DNA from: Eubacteriales bacterium
GTDB taxonomy: Bacteria > Bacillota > Clostridia > Oscillospirales > CAG-272
NCBI GenBank assembly: GCA_045119135.1
Contig: JBGVCY010000052.1
Coordinates: forward strand, 3,621-67,620
Length of the DNA: 64,000 nucleotides
Direction of reading: 5' to 3'
Shown here: positions 30,321-43,105 of the stretch, in pieces
How positions within the stretch are numbered: the first letter of the stretch is position 1
Layout of the letters: every line of letters starts with the position of its first letter
Notes under the pieces: generated by a model
Told to the model about the DNA's origin: nothing
The model's input: only the letters and a program-made list of their open reading frames with translations
Databases searched by the model: none
Translations under genes and position numbers: made by a program

Positions 30321-30357
30321 AAACAGCCTCTCTCGTGCCGAGAGAGGCTGTTTTTTT
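30321..30357. terminator. Bidirectional terminator between the AraC gene and the P-type ATPase
   Basis: AAACAGCCTCTCTCgtgccGAGAGAGGCTGTTTtttt. Confidence 0.8.
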
Positions 30358-32272
30358 ATTGCTTCTGCTCGCCGCGCAGGATGCGCGAGCTGTTCAGCAG
30401 CACGGCAAAGGCGCCGAGGTTATGCAGCACCGAGCCCGCCAGCGCGCTGATCACGCCAAGGGCAGACAGGGCGATCATACCCACGCTGATGCCGATGGAG
30501 AGTGCAAGATTCTGATAGATCGTGCGTCTGGTCTTACGCGCCAGCGAAATGACGAAGGGGATATTTTCGAGATTGTTATTCATCAGGGCAATATCCGCCG
30601 ATTCGATGGCAAGGTCGGAGCCCATGGCACCCATCGCGATGCCGACATCCGCCTCGCGGAGTGCAAGCGCATCGTTGATGCCGTCGCCCACGGCAAGCAC
30701 GCGGTGCTCGCCCTCACCAATGGCACGCAGCTTTTCCAGCTTATCCTGGGGCAGAAGGCGTGCGTACACCTCATCTACACCAAGCGCCTTTCCAATACCC
30801 ACGGCAGGCTCCTCGCGGTCACCCGTCAGGATCACGGTGCGCTCGGCACCAAGCGCGCGCAGGGTCGCCACGGTATCGGCGGCATTCTCGCGCAGGGTGT
30901 CGTTAAAGGAAAGCGCGCCCAACAGCTTGCCGTCACGCGACACCAAGCTGACACTGCCCGACAGCGCGGTGGCGAAGTCGGCAGGAATCTCACAGCCGCA
31001 GTCGATCAGCCACTCGCGGCGGCCAAAGCGTACCACGGCGCCATCCGCACCCTCTCCCTCAACGCCGCCGCCCGACACCTCACGTGCGGTGGATGCCGCC
31101 GTGTAGGCAGGCAGTGCCGCATACTCGGTCACGGCACGCGACACGGGGTGGGTGGATGCCACGGCAACCGAGGCGGCAGCCGAAAGCAGCTCCTCGACAT
31201 CGGTGTCGCCAAAGGGCAACACGTCAACCAGCGCAAGCTCGCCCTTGGTGACGGTACCCGTTTTGTCAAACACCACGGTATCGATTTCGGTCAGCTCTTC
31301 GATAAACTTGGAATTCTTGATCAGCACACCACGCTTGGTCGCCACCGACAGCGCGGCGATCATGGGGGCGGAGCTGACCAGCATCTGCCCGCAGGGGCAA
31401 GAGACCACCAGAATGGCAATGGTCTTGGAAATATCTGCGGTAACAAGTCCCACGCCTGCCGCAACGGCAAGCACAAAGGGAATGTAATAGCCAAGGAATC
31501 GGTCGATCAGGCGCGATTCGGGAACGGCGATATTCTCGGAATTTTCCAGCAGCTGCAAAATCTTGGAGAACGAGGTGTCCACGTGCTCCTTTTGCACCTC
31601 GACGGTAATTTTGCCGTCCAGATTGACAGTACCTGCAAACACGCTATCCCCCACCTTGGCGTGGGCGGGCTGCGGCTCGCCCGTCAGTGATTTCTGGTCG
31701 ATATGAGTCTCGCCCGCGATCACCACACCGTCGATCGGGATGCCTGCACCCGGTTTAATGACGATATGCTGACTCACGCGCAGCGTATCCACGGGAACGG
31801 TGGTTTCTACACCGTCCACAAGCAACAAGGCGGTGGTCTGCTGCATATTCTTCAGGCCCTCGATCACGTCTCTGCCGCCCATGATGCTGCGCTCCTCAAG
31901 AAGATGCACAACATTCAGGATCAACGGAATGAGCAGTGCCAAGATCAGTTCCTGGTTAAAGACACACGCAACAATCGCGATGCCCACCAAAATCTCCATA
32001 GCGTTGGTCAGATTTTTGGTAAACAGACCCTTCACGCCCGACACGATCACGGGCACGCCCTCAATCAAAAAGCCGATGAAATACAGCAGCTGCGGCAGGA
32101 TGGAATCCCCCCTGCCAAGCACGTAGGTATATATGAGACCCACCGCCAGAAGACAAAGCGTTGCCGCGCCGCAGATGATATCGCGCGCAAGCTTGTGTCT
32201 GCCCTTTTCGGTCAGGTTATCCCGCGAAAGGGCCTCAAGGCTGTTACGCCCCATATGGTCAATATTTTCCAT
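30356..32272 (-). CDS. P1B-type heavy-metal-translocating ATPase without an N-terminal metal-binding domain
   Basis: 638 aa; SCPCGQM (CPC), DKTGTVT, STHPVS, GDGINDALAL. There is no GMTCxxC HMA domain. Last gene of the SPFH operon. Confidence 0.92.
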   Translation of the reverse strand: MENIDHMGRNSLEALSRDNLTEKGRHKLARDIICGAATLCLLAVGLIYTYVLGRGDSILPQLLYFIGFLIEGVPVIVSGVKGLFTKNLTNAMEILVGIAIVACVFNQELILALLIPLILNVVHLLEERSIMGGRDVIEGLKNMQQTTALLLVDGVETTVPVDTLRVSQHIVIKPGAGIPIDGVVIAGETHIDQKSLTGEPQPAHAKVGDSVFAGTVNLDGKITVEVQKEHVDTSFSKILQLLENSENIAVPESRLIDRFLGYYIPFVLAVAAGVGLVTADISKTIAILVVSCPCGQMLVSSAPMIAALSVATKRGVLIKNSKFIEELTEIDTVVFDKTGTVTKGELALVDVLPFGDTDVEELLSAAASVAVASTHPVSRAVTEYAALPAYTAASTAREVSGGGVEGEGADGAVVRFGRREWLIDCGCEIPADFATALSGSVSLVSRDGKLLGALSFNDTLRENAADTVATLRALGAERTVILTGDREEPAVGIGKALGVDEVYARLLPQDKLEKLRAIGEGEHRVLAVGDGINDALALREADVGIAMGAMGSDLAIESADIALMNNNLENIPFVISLARKTRRTIYQNLALSIGISVGMIALSALGVISALAGSVLHNLGAFAVLLNSSRILRGEQKQ

Positions 32273-32284
32273 ACAAAAGCCCCC

Positions 32285-33226
32285 TTACGGATTGATAAAT
32301 ATCTTGGAATTTTCATCCTCGACGGCAATGACCCGCGAGAATCTGGCAATCGCCTTCATAATCTTTTCGGAATACACGCGCGCTTCCACGGCGGCAGGAG
32401 AGATCTTGTAGTCATCCAGCAGGCCCCAGAATTCGGAAAGATAGCTGTTTGCCGCCGCAATCTGCGTGCTTTTTTGCGAATTGGCGGTAGCAATGGCGGT
32501 AGCCCTTTCCTCCTTTGCCGAGGGGATGACCTTTGCGGCGTACTGATTTGCCTCTTCCTCGATGGTGGCGGCGCGCACAACGGCGGCATTGACCTGATCG
32601 TAAATGTCACGCACCTCCTCGGGCATTGCCACGTACGTCAGCTCGACCGTACCAAGCGACACGCCAACCTCCAGCTTTTCCAGCTTTTCGGTGGCACGCT
32701 CCAGCACCGCAGCAGAAAACTCTGCCTTTTTGTCGGTAAGAAGGCTATCCACCTCGATGCCTGCCGCTTCGGAAAGCATCGCGTTACTGACGGTTCCCTC
32801 GATGATCGCGGCAATATCCTTCACGTGCAGGGCATATGCCACGGGATCGGAAATGGTATATTTGACCGATGCCGACACCACGGCAACGTTATTATCACCC
32901 GTTAAAAGGTAGCCTGCGTTATCGTTACCGATGATCTTGCCGCTTGTGTAATAGGTGGTAATGCTTTGCTCGATTACACTGCCCGTGGGCACGGTGATGA
33001 CCTCATCGATGATATACGGCAGGGCGAAATGCAGACCCGGCTCGCGCACCTGCTCCTCTTTGGTGTCGCCCACCACCTTGCCAAAGCGCAGCACCACGGC
33101 AACATTGCCGCTTTCCACCACGCGGATGCAGGATGCTAAGATCAGCAGCACCACAACGCCGATGAGGATAAAGAAATACTTGGTAACACTTTCTAAAATG
33201 TCACCGACCAGCGTTTTCTTTTTCAT
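32285..33226 (-). CDS. SPFH/band-7 domain protein (third paralog)
   Basis: N-terminal TM, then IRVVESGNVAVVLRFGKV...EPGLHFALPYIIDEV, and a C-terminal Ala/Glu coiled-coil. Confidence 0.8.
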   Translation of the reverse strand: MKKKTLVGDILESVTKYFFILIGVVVLLILASCIRVVESGNVAVVLRFGKVVGDTKEEQVREPGLHFALPYIIDEVITVPTGSVIEQSITTYYTSGKIIGNDNAGYLLTGDNNVAVVSASVKYTISDPVAYALHVKDIAAIIEGTVSNAMLSEAAGIEVDSLLTDKKAEFSAAVLERATEKLEKLEVGVSLGTVELTYVAMPEEVRDIYDQVNAAVVRAATIEEEANQYAAKVIPSAKEERATAIATANSQKSTQIAAANSYLSEFWGLLDDYKISPAAVEARVYSEKIMKAIARFSRVIAVEDENSKIFINP

Positions 33227-33229
33227 ATC

Positions 33230-34327
33230 TTATCCCTCCGGCATCGTAATGCCGTTCTTTGCCGCCGCTTCCTCGATCAGCTCGTTCACGCCGTCGATGA
33301 TGGCTTGACGCTGGGTATCGTCCAGCTGGCTTAAGATATAGGTCAGATCGTGGATTACCTTATCGCCATCCTCGTCGGTCATATAATCCGAGTAATCCAG
33401 CAGAATGTTGAAGGGGTATTTATTGATGTTGACCACCAGCACACTCGAGGAATTGACAGAGGAAACAAGGGTATCCAGATTGCGCAGGAACTGATACAGA
33501 TCGATGTTGGCGTTATAGGCGTTGTTGTAAATTTCGGTCACAGCCTTTTCTGCCTCGGCGCGGATCTTTGCCGCCTCGGTCGTGCCCTCGCCGCGGATCT
33601 TGGATGCCTCGGCATCTGCCTCGGTGGTGATGTCGTTCGCCTTCAGATAGGCATTGGCAAGGATGATATCGATCTCCTTCTGGCGTTCTGCCTGCATCTG
33701 CTCGAACACGCTTTCCAGCGTGGCATCGGGCAGGGAGAACAGAAGGAAGCTGACGTCGGTCACGCGGATGCCGTAATTTTCAAGGCAGACCTCACGCACG
33801 GCGGCATAGATCTCGTTCTGGATCTGATCGATCTTGATCTCCTCTTGATCAAGCGAGACAAGATTGGTCAGGTTATATGTACCAAGCGTGCTGTTGGTGG
33901 CGTTGAAGACCTGACTGTTCAGCTTTTGCTCGGCGGTGCTGTTGAAGCCCACGCTGTTGTGATACAGCACGGGGTCGGCAACCTCCCACGTGACGAACGA
34001 GCGCACCACGATGTTGCGCTTATCCTTGGTCATGGTCTCAAGGTCGCCGGTTTCCAGATACTGCACGCGGCCGTCATAGGTAACCGAGGTCTCGAAGGGC
34101 CAGGGGAGCTTGAAGTAAAGACCCGCATCGGTGATCTCTTCACGAACGGCGCCAAAGCGCAGGATCACGGCGGTCTCGCCCTCTCTTACCTCGCAGGTGC
34201 AGCCAAACCAGAACAGCACCAGCACCACGGCAAATGCCGTGACGTATTTTGCGATCCTGATACCGAGGGGCGAGCGCGTCTTTTCAACGGTCTCTTTCCT
34301 TGCGGCGATTTTCTTATCGTTATTCAT
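33230..34327 (-). CDS. SPFH/band-7 domain protein (HflC-like)
   Basis: N-terminal TM, then EVREGETAVILRFGAVREEITDAGLYFKLPWPFETSV...TKDKRNIVV. Confidence 0.85.
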   Translation of the reverse strand: MNNDKKIAARKETVEKTRSPLGIRIAKYVTAFAVVLVLFWFGCTCEVREGETAVILRFGAVREEITDAGLYFKLPWPFETSVTYDGRVQYLETGDLETMTKDKRNIVVRSFVTWEVADPVLYHNSVGFNSTAEQKLNSQVFNATNSTLGTYNLTNLVSLDQEEIKIDQIQNEIYAAVREVCLENYGIRVTDVSFLLFSLPDATLESVFEQMQAERQKEIDIILANAYLKANDITTEADAEASKIRGEGTTEAAKIRAEAEKAVTEIYNNAYNANIDLYQFLRNLDTLVSSVNSSSVLVVNINKYPFNILLDYSDYMTDEDGDKVIHDLTYILSQLDDTQRQAIIDGVNELIEEAAAKNGITMPEG

Positions 34328-34347
34328 ACGGTTTTCCTCCGTTCCAC

Positions 34348-36132
34348 TTAGTTCAGCTTGCCAATATAAAGATTGGCGGTATTCACGCCGTCGCCCACCA
34401 GAACGATGGTGGCGTTGCCATAGGCATCGGTGATGGCGCCCAGATACTTTTCATATCGGTAAAAATCGGGATACGCCTTGTCCGCCTCGACAGCGGCAAG
34501 GAACTCGGCAACCGAGCCGTGTGCCGCGGCGATTGCCATATTCTTTTCGGCAGTTGCCACACCGATCAGGGTCGTTTTGCCCGTGTTGGCGGAGATCAGC
34601 GCCTCGGCGGCGGTTGCCTCTGCCATCAGGATGATGCGCTCGGCATCGATGCCCGCACTGAGCAGCTTCTGATAAATATCGGCGATCTCGACGGGGGGAT
34701 GGATGCTTTCCAGCACCACGCCGACCACCTCAAGCCCGAGCTCGCGCTCGGCGGCACGCTCGCGCAGCTCGGCGCACATATCGTCGGCAAACGCCACGCG
34801 GTCGGTAGCAAGCAGGGTGTCAAGGTCGGTGCTGATGGTACGCATCGTCAGCGCCTCGTACGCCATCGCCTGCAAAATCGATTCGGGGGCGGCACTGTTT
34901 TTGAGGTAGGCATTCAGGTCGCCGATCTTGTATTCCACGCGCAGGTTCACCGAAACCAGCTCCTCGCCGCCGCCAAGCAACAGGCGATGCTCCTCGGTGC
35001 CGTGCTCTGCCGTCCACAGGTTGTCCATACTGTCATCGGTCAGATAGCCGATGGTCATTTGCTGTACCTTACCCGTGTCATAGACCTCGACACGGTCGAA
35101 GGGCCAAGGCAGTGTGAAGTGAATGCCTGCCGTCAGCGGCTTGTCGGATAGCTTGCCCAAGCGGTAGTGCGCGCCCTGTTCAGAGGATTCGATCTGCACC
35201 ACGCCCGACGTGCCCCAAAGGATGACCAGCGCGGCGATAAAGGCATAGGGAATCACGGTCTTGACAAGACGGATGCTCCACAGCGAGCGCATTGTGATGC
35301 CCGTGTGCTTTTCGAGATACGAAAGGAACCCAAGGTCGGCGCCACCCACGCCCGGAACGGGCACCGAAAAATCGGGGACGGTCGACAGCTCGCGGCGAAT
35401 CAGACGAACGACCAGCGAGAGCATAAGGAAAAGCGTTTCATAGGCAAACAGCACCGCCAGCAGGATCACCGCGATCTTGGCAGGGTTATAGGTGCCAAGC
35501 AGGCGGATCACGGCGGCAACGGCGACGATCACCGTGCCGATTTTGGCAACGGCGGCAGCCGAGCGCAGGCTGTGCAGCAGTGCCACAATGTAGGTGTCGG
35601 CAGGCGACAACTCCTCGCCCTCGACGGCGACGGGCGCGCTGTGCTTGCACCACTTATCCAGAATGGTTAAGATCACGAAAAGGGCAAGCAGCAGCACAGG
35701 CACGGTATAGCCGAAGCGAACGGTCGGCAGGTCCAGCCTGCATTTTAACCAGAACATGATATTGGTGCCGATCAGCACAAGCGTCCACAGCACCGCCACG
35801 ATGGTATCGCGCCGACGCGCGTAGGCGTTATGCGCGCGAATGCGTGCGCCCGCGCGGCGCGCGGCGCGCTTTTGGCGGCGAAGCGTTTTTTTGTCAGCCG
35901 AGGCTTCAGGCGCCGCATCGGCAGGCTTTTCAAGCACTCTGCCAAAGGGCAGAAGCAGCACCAGCGAAATGGCAAACGGCGGCAGACAGCAAAGGGCAAG
36001 CAACAGAAGCGGCAGATAACTGATACTGCTGTAAAACAGCAACAGCACCGCCGCCGAAGCTGCAAGCAGCAACGCGGCGATCAGCGCCGTTTGCCGATTG
36101 CCCTTCGGGCGTTTTTGAGGCTTTCGATCCAT
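34348..36132 (-). CDS. Polytopic membrane protein with C-terminal HflK-like SPFH domain
   Basis: 594 aa from the ATG at 36130-36132 (AAGGAGGAG RBS). About 7 hydrophobic helices, then VVQIESSEQGAHYRLGKL...GIHFTLPWPFDRVEV and a coiled-coil tail. Confidence 0.8.
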   Translation of the reverse strand: MDRKPQKRPKGNRQTALIAALLLAASAAVLLLFYSSISYLPLLLLALCCLPPFAISLVLLLPFGRVLEKPADAAPEASADKKTLRRQKRAARRAGARIRAHNAYARRRDTIVAVLWTLVLIGTNIMFWLKCRLDLPTVRFGYTVPVLLLALFVILTILDKWCKHSAPVAVEGEELSPADTYIVALLHSLRSAAAVAKIGTVIVAVAAVIRLLGTYNPAKIAVILLAVLFAYETLFLMLSLVVRLIRRELSTVPDFSVPVPGVGGADLGFLSYLEKHTGITMRSLWSIRLVKTVIPYAFIAALVILWGTSGVVQIESSEQGAHYRLGKLSDKPLTAGIHFTLPWPFDRVEVYDTGKVQQMTIGYLTDDSMDNLWTAEHGTEEHRLLLGGGEELVSVNLRVEYKIGDLNAYLKNSAAPESILQAMAYEALTMRTISTDLDTLLATDRVAFADDMCAELRERAAERELGLEVVGVVLESIHPPVEIADIYQKLLSAGIDAERIILMAEATAAEALISANTGKTTLIGVATAEKNMAIAAAHGSVAEFLAAVEADKAYPDFYRYEKYLGAITDAYGNATIVLVGDGVNTANLYIGKLN

Positions 36133-36246
36133 TTTATCTCCTCCTTTGGGATAACATCGCGCAACCGCGGCAATGCCGCGGTTGCGCTTCGCAAAACACA
36201 ATGATGACCCGCGCACACGCGCGCTTTGTCCAATAGAGATAAAAAT

Positions 36247-36276
36247 ATTATAACACTATGCTCTATTGTTTGTCAA
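36247..36276 (-). promoter_or_regulatory. Consensus sigma-A promoter of the SPFH/ATPase operon
   Basis: Minus-strand TTGACA-18 nt-TATAAT, flanked by the inverted repeat CAATAGAG (36231-36238) / CTCTATTG (36261-36268). Confidence 0.6.
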
Positions 36277-40552: not shown

Positions 40553-43105
40553 ATGAAAAAAGTAAGCTTTGCCGTAACCGGCATGACCTGCGCCGCTTGC
40601 GTTGCCCACGTCGAGCGCGCGGCTCGCGGCGTGCTTGGCGACGGAATTCCCTTTACCGTCAGCCTGTTATCCAATACCCTTTCGCTCTCGCTTGAGGATT
40701 CTGCCGATGCCGAGGCGCTCTTCCGCCGCCTTGCGGCGGCGCTGAAGCGCGCGGGCTACGGGCTGGAAAAGCCCGAGGCGCGCAGCGACGCGGCGCGCGC
40801 GGCACGCGAGCGGCGCCGCGAGACCGCGCGGCTTGTCGCATCGATCGCACTGACGGCTCTGTTGATGGTGGTTGCGATGTGGCATATGACGCCTCTGCCC
40901 GCACCCTGGATCTTGGATTCGTCGCGCTATCCCGTGGCATTCTGGTGCTTGCAGGCGGTGCTGACGGGGGTTGTTATTTTTTTAGAGCGCCGCTTCTGGC
41001 GCGGCGGCTTCTCGGCGCTTTTGCACCGATCGCCGAATATGGATTCGCTGGTGGCGCTGGGCTCGGCATCGGCTGCCGTATACGGCTTGGTCGCGGGCGG
41101 CTTTATCCTTTACGGCACCGCCGTGGGCGATGCCGCGCTGGTGCACCGCTATCTGCACGAGCTGTATCTCGAATCGGCGGCAATGATCTTGACCCTTGTT
41201 TCGGTGGGCAAGTTTTTGGAAGGGCGCGCCCGCAACCGCGCCGCAGGCGCGGTACGCGCGCTGATTTCCGAGGAAGCCACCACCGCACACGTGCTGCGCG
41301 ATGGCAAGGAATGTGAGGTACTGACCGCCGAGCTTGCCGCAGGCGACCTGCTGCTTGTCCGCGAGGGCGAAAAGATTCCCACCGATGGCAAGATCGAAGG
41401 GGGCGAGGGTAGTGTCAACGAGGCGATGCTGACAGGCGAATCGCTCCCCCGTGCCGTTGCCGCAGGCGACGAGGTATCGGGTGCTACGGTTCTGGTGGAA
41501 GGAACGCTGACCGTGCGCGCTACGCGCGTGGGCGAAGAAACAACACTGCGCCGCATTGCGGCTCTGCTGGAAGAGACCGCCGCCACAAAAGCCCCCGTAC
41601 AACGCCTTGCCGACAAGGTCAGCTCCATTTTTGTGCCCGCCGTGCTTTGCATCTCACTGCTGACGGCTGTCGTGTGGCTGATTGCCACGCGCAACGTATC
41701 ACTTGCCTTCCGCACCGCGGTTTCGGTGCTGGTCATCTCCTGTCCCTGTGCGCTGGGGCTTGCCACCCCCACCGCCATTACGGTGGGCAGTGGACGGGGC
41801 GCACGCTTTGGCATTCTTTTCAAAAGCGCCGAGGCGCTGGAAACGCTTTCCTCGATGCGCTATCTGCTGACCGACAAAACGGGGACTCTGACGAAGGGCG
41901 AAATGACGGTAACCGACCGTCTGTGCCTTGCGGGCGACGAGCCGTATTTTCTCGCCGTTACCGCCTCGGTCGAGGCGCTTTCCGCGCATCCCGTGGCAAA
42001 GCCGCTTGCTGCACTTTCGGATGCTCGCTTCCCCATCGAGGACCTTGTTTCGCATACCGCACGCGGACTGTCCGCCTCGCTTGCGGGCGAGCGCGTGCTG
42101 GCAGGCAACGTGGCGCTGTTTGCCGAAACCGCGGGCGCGCCTCTGCTTTCCCCCGAGGTGCTTGCAACCGTTTCGCTGTGGGAGGGCGAGGGCAAAAGCG
42201 TTACGGTAGTTGCCAAAGGCGATACCGTTTTGGGACTTGTTGCCGTTGCCGATACCCTGCGCGAGGATAGCCCCGCCGCCGTTGCGGCGCTGAAGCGCCA
42301 CGGCGTGCAGGTGGTGATGCTGACGGGTGACCACGAGCGCACGGCGCGCAAGATTGCCGCCGAGGCGGGAATCGATGCCTTCCGCGCGGGGCTGTTGCCT
42401 GCTGATAAGGAGCGTATCGCGCACGAATACACCGAAAAGGATGTCACCGCTATGGTGGGTGACGGCATCAACGATGCGCCCGCGCTTGCGCGCGCTGACA
42501 TTGGTATCGCCATTGGTGCGGGCACGGCAGTTGCTGTGGAATCGGCATCGGTGGTGCTGTCGGGCAATACCCTATCGGATGCGGTTGCCGCCATGGAATT
42601 GGGGCGTGCCACCCGTCGCAACATCCGACAGAATCTCTTTTGGGCACTGCTGTATAACGCCATCTGTATCCCCGTGGCGGCAGGCGTGTTTTACGCCCCG
42701 TTCGGGCTCTTACTCACCCCGATGATCGCTTCGGCGGCGATGAGCTGCTCGTCGATCTTTGTGGTGCTGAACGCTCTGCGCCTTTCGCGCTTTATTCCCC
42801 CGTCGATCCGCGCACGCGAGCAAGCTCGCCGCGCTGAAGAAAAAGCATATCAAGAAAAAAGAAAGAAGGAAGAGGAAATGTTTTTTAAGAAAAAGGAAAC
42901 CGTGACAACCGTTCTTTCGGTTGAGGGTATGATGTGCGGCAAGTGCGCCGCGCACGTGGAAAACGCACTGAAGGCACTGAAGGGTGTCACCGCGGTCAAG
43001 GTCGACCTTGATGCCAAATCGGTGACGGTAACCGCCACCGCCAAGGTTACCGCCGACGCGATGAAAAAAGCGATCACCGACGCGGGCTACACCGTGGTCG
43101 ACTGA
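40553..43105 (+). CDS. copA: Copper-translocating P1B-1 ATPase with N-terminal and C-terminal HMA domains
   Basis: 850 aa; [37 protein letters not shown], and a C-terminal [11 protein letters not shown] domain after a Lys/Glu linker. Confidence 0.95.

Follow-up and report, generated by a model that had tools for sequence, protein, structure and literature searches.

Cages built of SPFH (band-7) proteins (HflK/C, stomatin, prohibitin, erlin, flotillin) have recently been resolved, and most of their clients as well as the purpose of the enclosure are unclear; for the bacterial HflK/C type the best-characterised client is the protease FtsH. Here we analyse a unit of four genes in a 64,000-nucleotide (nt) stretch of contig JBGVCY010000052.1 from Eubacteriales bacterium (CAG-272, Oscillospirales), referred to below as the window, in which three genes for HflK/C-type SPFH proteins (g1, g2 and g3) are followed by a gene (g4) for a P1B-type ATPase. 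The unit may offer this type of assembly a genetically defined second client, a metal pump.

The closest described system is the PA2439-PA2435 locus of Pseudomonas aeruginosa, in which Zn depletion or a znuA mutation induces PA2439 (HflK family), PA2438 (HflC), PA2437 (HflC family) and PA2435 (HmtA), and Zur binds the PA2439 promoter. Cells expressing HmtA were reported to contain more Zn and Cu, an "unusual characteristic" that according to reviewers needs confirmation. PA2439-PA2437 have been interpreted as modulators of FtsH or, alternatively, as an independent operon of three genes, with no link made to the pump, and a paper from 2026, which named the trio PaFlo5-7 and noted its patchy distribution, suggestive of horizontal transfer, never mentions the ATPase. 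The literature searched contains no paper that pairs SPFH proteins with P1B ATPases. A preliminary description of the window had known of no account of such an arrangement; this holds for the SPFH-pump link but not for the locus, since Zur binding and joint induction by Zn starvation had been reported for PA2439-PA2437 and hmtA (PA2435) as one locus. In both organisms three HflK/C-family genes (K-family, C, C/K-family) precede a P1B ATPase, with an extra gene, PA2436, between the SPFH genes and hmtA in P. aeruginosa.

The HflK/HflC-FtsH system of E. coli and the window unit have in common alternating K- and C-type SPFH proteins and, as a concept, a polytopic client fenced in a membrane patch. 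Like HflK and HflC, g1-g3 combine an SPFH domain, predicted to lie on the outer face, with an N-in transmembrane (TM) anchor (by predicted topology), a long coiled coil and a C-terminal hydrophobic strand, and they comprise paired K and C types. However, the module has three paralogues instead of two, g1 carries six extra TM helices and a W-x3-H insertion relative to HflK, there is neither an hfq-hflX context nor a linked ftsH, and the client would be a P-type pump instead of an AAA protease. SPFH-NfeD operons (QmcA-YbbJ, FloA-NfeD, stomatin-STOPP) similarly join an SPFH protein to a dedicated membrane partner, but no NfeD was found in the cassette, its flanks or the related loci inspected, and SPFH proteins of the YbbK/QmcA type are oriented towards the cytoplasm, in contrast to the HflK/C type, to which g1-g3 are similar. 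Indeed, as the preliminary description had noticed, no gene for NfeD, FtsH or another protease lies inside or next to the unit in the window.

Two systems resemble the module from the side of the pump. In mycobacterial "effluxosomes" PacL scaffolds serve CtpC, CtpG and CtpV, and in the PacL1-CtpC pair of M. tuberculosis a pump of the "CPC/HN" type needs a membrane scaffold from its own operon, by which it is clustered and stabilised. The likeness is one of function, with no homology: PacL is a small DUF1490 protein that has one TM helix, EA repeats in the cytosol and a motif for metal binding, and it binds the metal-binding domain (MBD) of the pump, whereas the module has SPFH partners predicted to face outward and a pump without an MBD. 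Like g4, FezB and other P1B-6 pumps lack an N-terminal MBD, have the "HN" signature in TM6, come with dedicated partners in their operons and are found in anaerobes; they differ in TM4 (D[YF]SCA versus SCPC in g4), in the number of TM helices (6 versus ~8) and in their partners (small GxxxG or R-rich proteins versus SPFH proteins).

Conservation of the four-gene unit

The unit comprises four open reading frames (ORFs) on the minus strand, to which the gene and protein-motif coordinates below refer: g1 (594 aa, 34348-36132), g2 (365 aa, 33230-34327), g3 (313 aa, 32285-33226) and g4 (638 aa, 30356-32272), separated by 20, 3 and 12 nt. With a single promoter, short gaps and a single terminator, the four genes form one transcription unit; ORF coordinates and a perfectly matching promoter agree on this point with the preliminary description.

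A scan of one genome per species revealed relatives of g1 in 108 species-level genomes, all of them metagenome-assembled genomes of uncultured gut Clostridia/Oscillospiraceae. Of the loci examined for gene order 80 were kept, and the order g1-g2-g3-ATPase is preserved in 73 of the 73 with enough DNA, the 7 exceptions stopping at a contig edge. Relatives of g1 at 45-50% identity and relatives of the pump at 70-77% are located on shared contigs, and three inspected neighbourhoods exhibit the identical four-gene order, in one case (L005) with wholly different flanks. Across the species-level genomes the pump is 57-76% identical, compared with about 39-57% for g1, and it is under strong purifying selection in Oscillospirales.

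The same cassette is found in Proteobacteria. The best plasmid matches of the window pump in tblastn searches include Rhizobium and Klebsiella records, and a Klebsiella aerogenes plasmid encodes in succession an "HflK" (568 aa), an "HflC" (334 aa), another "HflK" (359 aa) and a 638-aa P-type ATPase. Further copies reside on plasmids of Rhizobium lusitanum, R. tumorigenes, Burkholderia ubonensis and Paraburkholderia, and stop and start codons of neighbouring genes overlap in the plasmid cassettes, that of Klebsiella among them. Chromosomal cassettes occur in Kosakonia and Salmonella, in island-like surroundings with integrase or transposase genes; none was found in complete genomes of E. coli. 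This distribution is as patchy and as suggestive of horizontal transfer as that of PA2439-PA2435. In a census of 72,556 plasmids, where the pump type was defined by at least 52% identity to the Klebsiella pump, an HflC-like gene lies 1-2 kb upstream on the same strand in 11 of the 11 records with this pump type and near none of the next-best plasmid pumps (at most 37% identity); a non-cassette pump of Chelativorans has an adjoining gene for an HMA chaperone instead. As to annotation, the start of g1 on the Klebsiella plasmid (568 aa) is probably placed ~40-60 codons too far downstream (L087:2116-3145 and 3146), as an in-frame ATGGTGCCTAAC... ORF lies upstream and the Kosakonia and Salmonella orthologues have 626-633 aa. 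A DUF4198 gene is located 1 kb upstream of the same g1.

All-against-all BLAST comparisons paired each SPFH protein of the window with the proteobacterial protein in the same position (g1: 108-117 bits; g2: 126-133 bits; g3: 55-67 bits, which is more than g3 scores against proteobacterial g1), and orthologues of g2 are the second SPFH gene in every case. Tested in this way by sequence, orthology holds for the cassettes of Klebsiella, Burkholderia, Rhizobium, Kosakonia and Salmonella, and this positional orthology across phyla indicates that the three paralogues were already distinct in the ancestor of the module. Of four loci sampled from intermediate pump lineages, three possess the cassette. 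In L180, genes for SPFH proteins of 582, 335 and 362 aa precede that of a 647-aa pump, and the neighbours are Planctomycetes-like; in L179, the start of the pump is overlapped by an SPFH gene that the contig end cuts off; in L178, a 636-aa pump follows SPFH proteins of 648, 306 and 358 aa, and znuA/znuC adjoin in divergent orientation. As a negative control we used 80 generic P1B-ATPase loci from metagenomes, collected in a scan with the alignment of the fusions described below; SPFH genes were found near none of them (0/80).

Natural fusions of the pump to a Band_7 domain are represented by seven clusters at 50% identity, with representatives of 989-1301 aa; they come from independent assemblies, on contigs that range from 9 to 549 kb, and one of the clusters comprises six proteins of 995 aa. 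In these proteins TM6 of the pump is followed by a K/R-rich linker, one TM helix and an SPFH domain that is g1-type by BLAST, and at all three fusion loci inspected the next gene is exclusively g2-like (HflC-like), followed by a K-like gene. The C-terminus of P-type ATPases is cytoplasmic, and because a single TM helix lies between it and the fused SPFH domain, the latter is predicted to be outside the membrane. The set of one pump and three SPFH paralogues (K-C-K) is thus preserved in three architectures, and since in the fusions the pump replaces the polytopic domain of g1, g1 is likely to be the pump-contacting subunit. Two of the fusion modules are followed by homologous ORFs of ~160 aa with an N-terminal TM helix (L175:12240-12731 and L176:10884-11366; mutual E-value 8e-15), which may be a lineage-specific fifth component; a 161-aa ORF past the Kosakonia pump (L092:9913-10398) is unrelated to them.

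Taken together, the comparative sequence data strongly support a dedicated partnership of function, which is almost certainly also physical, between the pump and a three-paralogue HflK/C-type assembly on the outer face of the membrane. The preliminary description had proposed a hetero-oligomeric SPFH scaffold dedicated to an ion pump, and had named restriction of the linkage to this strain or its close relatives, and pump orthologues elsewhere never adjoining SPFH genes, as findings that would speak against it. The linkage instead extends from Oscillospirales to alpha-, beta- and gamma-Proteobacteria and further lineages, and the pump orthologues there adjoin SPFH genes in K-C-K order with positional orthology. 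The proposal of a dedicated scaffold therefore gains support from linkage, orthology and natural fusions, while a physical pump-SPFH complex and its cage geometry are what we infer by analogy.

Features of the pump and the SPFH proteins

The product of g4 exceeds the cut-off of TIGR01525 (479 bits; cut-off 346) and consists of the Pfam domains E1-E2_ATPase and Hydrolase. As stated in the preliminary description it has no HMA domain: Pfam gave no HMA match, and the N-terminal 40 residues contain 2 His. The motifs described there were located as DKTGT (residues 336-340; phosphorylation motif, 31253-31267), GDGINDA (529-535) and the CPC of TM4, beside SLTGEP (195-200), SCPCGQMLVSSAP and STHPVS (373-378), so that all hallmarks of P1B ATPases (DKTGT, TGE, HP, the GDG hinge and SCPC in TM4) are in place. 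The metal-site motif of TM4 is VVSCPCGQMLVSSAP (31364-31408); its segment differs, as had been claimed, from that of the CopA encoded in the same window. Among 72 distinct Oscillospirales orthologues VSCPCGQMLVSSAP of TM4 is identical in 65, and DKTGT, TGE and GDGINDA are kept in all 72. Hydropathy suggests ~8 TM helices, of which four precede and two follow the A domain, with the last two at the C-terminus. In the TM6 motif LHNLGAFAVLLNSSR (30383-30427) Asn is aligned with the Asp of ZntA types ("ADxG") and with the Glu of P1B-4-like pumps ("HEGS"), and "HN" in TM6 is a hallmark of P1B-6/CtpC-like pumps.

By these motifs g4 is classified as a "CPC/HN" (P1B-6-like) P1B ATPase. It scores 421 bits against TIGR01512 (Cd/Zn-type subfamily), above the cut-off, and is roughly equidistant from the solved CopA, ZntA and sCoaT. 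Assignment to P1B-2 (ZntA type) was rejected, as CPC is present but TM5 (YQNLALSIGISVG) lacks Lys and TM6 (LHNLGA) has Asn instead of Asp. Assignment to true P1B-6 (FezB) was likewise rejected, as TM4 reads VVSCPC instead of D[Y/F]SCA, HNLGA of TM6 lacks the Thr, there are ~8 instead of 6 TM helices and no fez-like genes are present. When the window pump was compared exhaustively with 1.84 billion representative proteins, the matches formed a continuum of pumps without an MBD (620-670 aa) that have CPC in TM4 and LHNxG...NSAR in TM6. In a neighbour-joining tree, calculated without support values, the clade of the window pump stands beside a proteobacterial (HmtA-like) clade, both within a "CPC/HN" group of 34 leaves that is distant from the ZntA/CadA types with their Lys in TM5 and ADxG in TM6.

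The SPFH proteins were assigned with Pfam and ranked with NCBIfam models and their equivalog cut-offs. All three contain Band_7 (residues 313-507 in g1), and the best models bear out the K-like and C-like labels of g1 and g2 in the preliminary description and its recognition of g3 as a further SPFH paralogue: TIGR01933 (hflK) for g1 (95.4 bits; cut-off 159.4) and g3 (122.5 bits; same cut-off), TIGR01932 (hflC) for g2 (125.9 bits; cut-off 134.4). Equivalog-level similarity to HflK or HflC is therefore reached by none of them, nor by the Klebsiella trio, and NCBIfam has no model specific to this family. Both g2 and g3 have a single N-terminal TM helix. For g1, the AlphaFold 2 (AF2) model (mean pLDDT 79.8) comprises six TM helices, a short amphipathic helix, TM7, the SPFH domain and a coiled-coil helix of ~70 residues, in line with the ~7 hydrophobic helices counted before. 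Foldseek identified HflK/HflC chains of HflK/C-FtsH cages as the top structural matches of this model (E-value about 1e-13), ahead of stomatin, erlin, prohibitin, QmcA and flotillin; g2 matched the HflC chains of solved cages (E-value 4e-20) and g3 the HflK chains (E-value 2e-15; g3 together with g1 spans 1e-15 to 1e-17 against HflK).

The N-terminal polytopic domain of g1 (residues 1-262; 35347-36132), with six TM helices in the AF2 model, has no Pfam match even at E-values up to 10, and hhalign detected no homology between its Oscillospirales and proteobacterial versions. It contains a near-invariant K-W-C(-x-H) motif, DKWCKH, at the cytoplasmic end of TM4 (35641-35658) and a conserved Y-E-T in TM6, FAYETLF (35428-35448), both of which could possibly make contacts to metal or lipid. 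The only further Foldseek matches of g1 are CDF zinc transporters (ZnT7, YiiP, ZnT3/4 and SLC30A10; E-values 0.02-0.7), which presumably stem from this six-TM bundle. A CDF identity of the domain was rejected, since the Foldseek similarity is weak, sequence support is missing and there is no conserved intramembrane Asp/His quartet.

Detectable homology to proteobacterial g1 begins at the cytoplasmic juxtamembrane motif FLSYLEKHTGITMRSLWSIRLVK (35260-35328; hhalign E-value 4.5e-38), in which YLE..TG..MRSLWS is invariant; in the AF2 model the invariant YLEKxTGITMRSLWS sits on the amphipathic helix. The SPFH domain proper (residues 310-478; 34699-35205; Pfam, AF2 and structure search) is predicted to be extracytoplasmic because seven TM helices precede it with the N-terminus inside, and the architecture of the fusions supports this independently. 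Within it, g1 has a specific loop, DNLWTAEHGTEEHR (34984-35025), that is an insertion relative to canonical HflK (the HflK alignment leaves out residues 349-383) and bears a W-x3-H signature. Its W and H are conserved in the g1-type proteins of Oscillospirales, of Proteobacteria and of the fusions (variants WTAEH, WDKSH, WDNSH and WTMPH, and EWNxQH in fusions), and the motif is absent from g2 and g3.

Proposed role and alternative explanations

We interpret the unit as a conserved module in which a CPC/HN pump is enclosed by a dedicated K-C-K SPFH assembly and most likely serves the acquisition or allocation of zinc or a related metal, a reading to which we assign a probability of about 0.68. 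The SPFH domains would face outward from the cytoplasmic membrane, and by analogy with HflK/C around FtsH the K-C-K proteins would assemble there into a ring or cage, fencing the pump into a private membrane patch and covering its outer mouth. Contact with the pump would be made by g1, as a g1-type SPFH domain is fused to the pump in some lineages in place of the polytopic domain. Judged by the content and order of its genes, the module corresponds to PA2439-PA2435 (PaFlo5-7 plus HmtA); because that locus is controlled by Zur and its pump is reported to raise Zn and Cu, acquisition or allocation of zinc or another divalent metal is the most likely role.

Homology and context make zinc the leading candidate for the metal. 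At L178 the cassette adjoins znuA/znuC, and upstream of Kosakonia g1 there is a Zur-like box, the sole match in 18 kb (~0.015 expected by chance), although this is 1 of only 6 proteobacterial loci with such a box. His-rich N-termini were found in the pumps of Enterobacterales and Rhizobium. HmtA and PaFlo5-7 are probably one machine of the zinc-starvation response. The SPFH topology, the metal and the direction of transport in the module are all putative; for the direction we estimate uptake at ~50% and outward delivery into a cage-delimited space at ~30%, the rest being something else. At L178, a perfect 17-bp palindrome, TTGCGAATTATTCGCAA, lies in the divergent control region between znuA and the cassette (L178:2022-2529), at a distance of 47 bp from a near copy, TTGCGAGTGAGTCGCAA; both are candidate metalloregulator operators common to the zinc ABC importer and the SPFH-pump module.

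Several observations weigh against this interpretation or parts of it. P1B pumps have very small outer loops, so that contact with a cage on the outer face is puzzling. One sampled CPC/HN pump of an intermediate lineage (L177, P0247) has no SPFH neighbour. With regard to zinc, no Zur/Fur box (allowing up to 2 mismatches) was found in any of 82 Oscillospirales upstream regions, in contrast to the Zur-regulated, Zn-starvation-induced PA2439-PA2435, and the pumps of the window clade lack the His-rich N-terminus of the proteobacterial ones; their TM4 tail differs as well, and the TM4 sequence of the window, CPCGQMLVSSAP, is distinctive, so that the metal may differ from that of the proteobacterial pumps. 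The window unit was matched to PA2435-PA2439 by published gene content and order, and a search for homologues of the Klebsiella pump returned, among the best 120 matches, Enterobacterales exclusively and no Pseudomonas. In P. aeruginosa itself, import by HmtA is regarded as unconfirmed, one study found hmtA mRNA to be low and not repressed by added Zn, and deletion of paFlo5-7 caused only subtle phenotypes under conditions that did not include metal limitation.

We also consider, tentatively and with more doubt than confidence, that the K-C-K assembly is a closed or gated chamber over the outer mouth of the pump, a periplasm-like micro-compartment even in monoderms, with a ring of W-x3-H loops as metal ligands that would pass ions to the pump or take them from it. 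If so, a P1B ATPase could serve metal acquisition or protected delivery, which could explain the "importer" behaviour of HmtA, studied without its three SPFH partners, and the module would constitute a second client class for bacterial HflK/C-type cages and the first SPFH cage integral to a transporter. Whatever the geometry, three features back the pairing: the module is conserved across phyla, its make-up of one pump with three SPFH proteins is constant, and fusions mark the contact subunit; as the module is widespread in uncultured gut Oscillospirales and on enterobacterial plasmids and islands, it may matter for competition for metals in the gut.

The module could instead be a platform for metal efflux and resistance, in which the SPFH proteins cluster and stabilise an exporter in the manner of PacL and which detoxifies Zn, Cd or Cu. 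Mechanistically characterised P1B ATPases export metal, g4 exceeds the Cd/Zn cut-off of TIGR01512, the likewise CPC/HN ("P1B-6-like") CtpC needs its scaffold, several proteobacterial copies lie on plasmids or islands near transposases and integrases, as resistance genes often do, and the promoter in the window is strong and apparently constitutive. However, the P. aeruginosa locus is bound by Zur and induced by starvation for Zn, not by its excess, HmtA expression raised cellular Zn and Cu, and both the znuA/znuC adjacency and the Zur-like box point to limitation. Furthermore, no MerR/ArsR metal sensor or HMA chaperone is linked to the cassettes, unlike the non-cassette pump of Chelativorans. 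We therefore regard an efflux role as unlikely.

According to another explanation, which we find improbable, the trio is an ordinary modulator of FtsH that is merely co-transcribed with the pump or tunes its FtsH-dependent turnover, the pump being a client of quality control. The HflK/HflC preferences of g1-g3 in the model and structure searches agree with it, as do the annotation of PA2437-2439 as FtsH modulators by the authors who studied them in P. aeruginosa and the known dependence of P-ATPase stability on accessory proteins that shield the pump from degradation. On the other hand, the trio remains below the equivalog cut-offs in both phyla, P. aeruginosa has in addition a canonical hfq-hflX-hflK-hflC operon, and the Enterobacterales hosts likewise carry canonical hflKC besides the trio. 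The trio is strictly tied to one pump lineage and sometimes fused to the pump, no ftsH is linked at any locus inspected, and both the W-x3-H insertion and the polytopic domain of g1 are missing from HflK. It is the scores below cut-off, the coexisting hflKC, the linkage to one lineage and the pump fusions that weaken this explanation.

A store of metal resembling ferrosomes, where a P1B-6-related pump loads a membrane-bounded compartment shaped by SPFH proteins, appears very improbable. The "HN" of TM6 is common to g4 and the FezB/P1B-6 pumps by which anaerobes load their ferrosomes, the module is found here in anaerobes of the gut, and SPFH assemblies make domes on membranes; but TM4 has SCPC instead of D[YF]SCA, TM6 lacks the Thr of HNxxT, there are ~8 instead of 6 TM helices, no small GxxxG or R-rich proteins of the Fez type are linked in the window or the inspected Oscillospirales neighbourhoods, the SPFH domains are predicted on the outer and not the cytoplasmic face, and the proteobacterial versions are zinc-starvation genes. 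Incidental synteny without any functional link, for which one could cite the flanks shared by some Oscillospirales loci (PfkB upstream, Gfo/Idh/MocA and AraC downstream), is effectively refuted by the comparative data, as the cassette persists with completely different flanks, across phyla, on plasmids and on islands, its genes overlap at start and stop codons or are fused, and none of the 80 control loci shows the linkage.

Regulatory signals and surroundings

The promoter of the unit (36247-36276, minus strand) consists of TTGACA, an 18-nt spacer and a TG-extended TATAAT, which amounts to 12 of 12 matches to the sigma70 hexamers, and promoters resembling cTTGACAA...TATAAT precede g1 at about 25 related loci. 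Its -10 box is bracketed by an 8-bp inverted repeat, CAATAGAG...CTCTATTG (within 36227-36266). The 5' leader of 114 nt (36133-36246, minus strand; minimum free energy -49 kcal/mol) contains GC-rich hairpins, the strong ones being GCGCGCGTGTGCGCG and GCGCAACCGCGGCATTGCCGCGGTTGCGC, and ends in the ribosome-binding site AAAGGAGG. Short GCGCGC-loop-GCGCGC hairpins between the promoter and the ribosome-binding site recur at about 10 related loci; apart from such short GC-rich hairpins, no larger leader architecture is common to the related loci, and an Rfam scan of the leader reported no family above the gathering threshold. The ORF of g1 could be extended to a GTG at 36216, but the ATG at 36132, which yields 594 aa, is the likely start because AAAGGAGG precedes it and the homologues begin at the matching position. 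At the other end, 3 nt past the stop codon of the ATPase, there is a bidirectional intrinsic terminator (30321-30353) with a 15-bp stem that includes 8 GC pairs.

The cassette is flanked by genes for an SDR, a radical-SAM/B12 protein, an AraC regulator, a Gfo/Idh/MocA oxidoreductase and an MFS transporter, none of them related to metals or proteolysis. The gene for the HMA-bearing CopA lies ~4 kb from the cassette. Bacterial CopA pumps usually have an N-terminal HMA domain; in the 850-aa CopA of the window (40553-43105, plus strand) Pfam finds none in the ~240 residues ahead of the A domain and places HMA at the C-terminus (residues 787-847).

The organism of the window apparently has no close species representative in the genome collection, where the closest g1 is 50-57% identical, while metagenome-derived proteins reach 78% identity to g1 and 92% to the pump. 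Only one exact match to g1 was found, on a 4.8-kb Logan contig.

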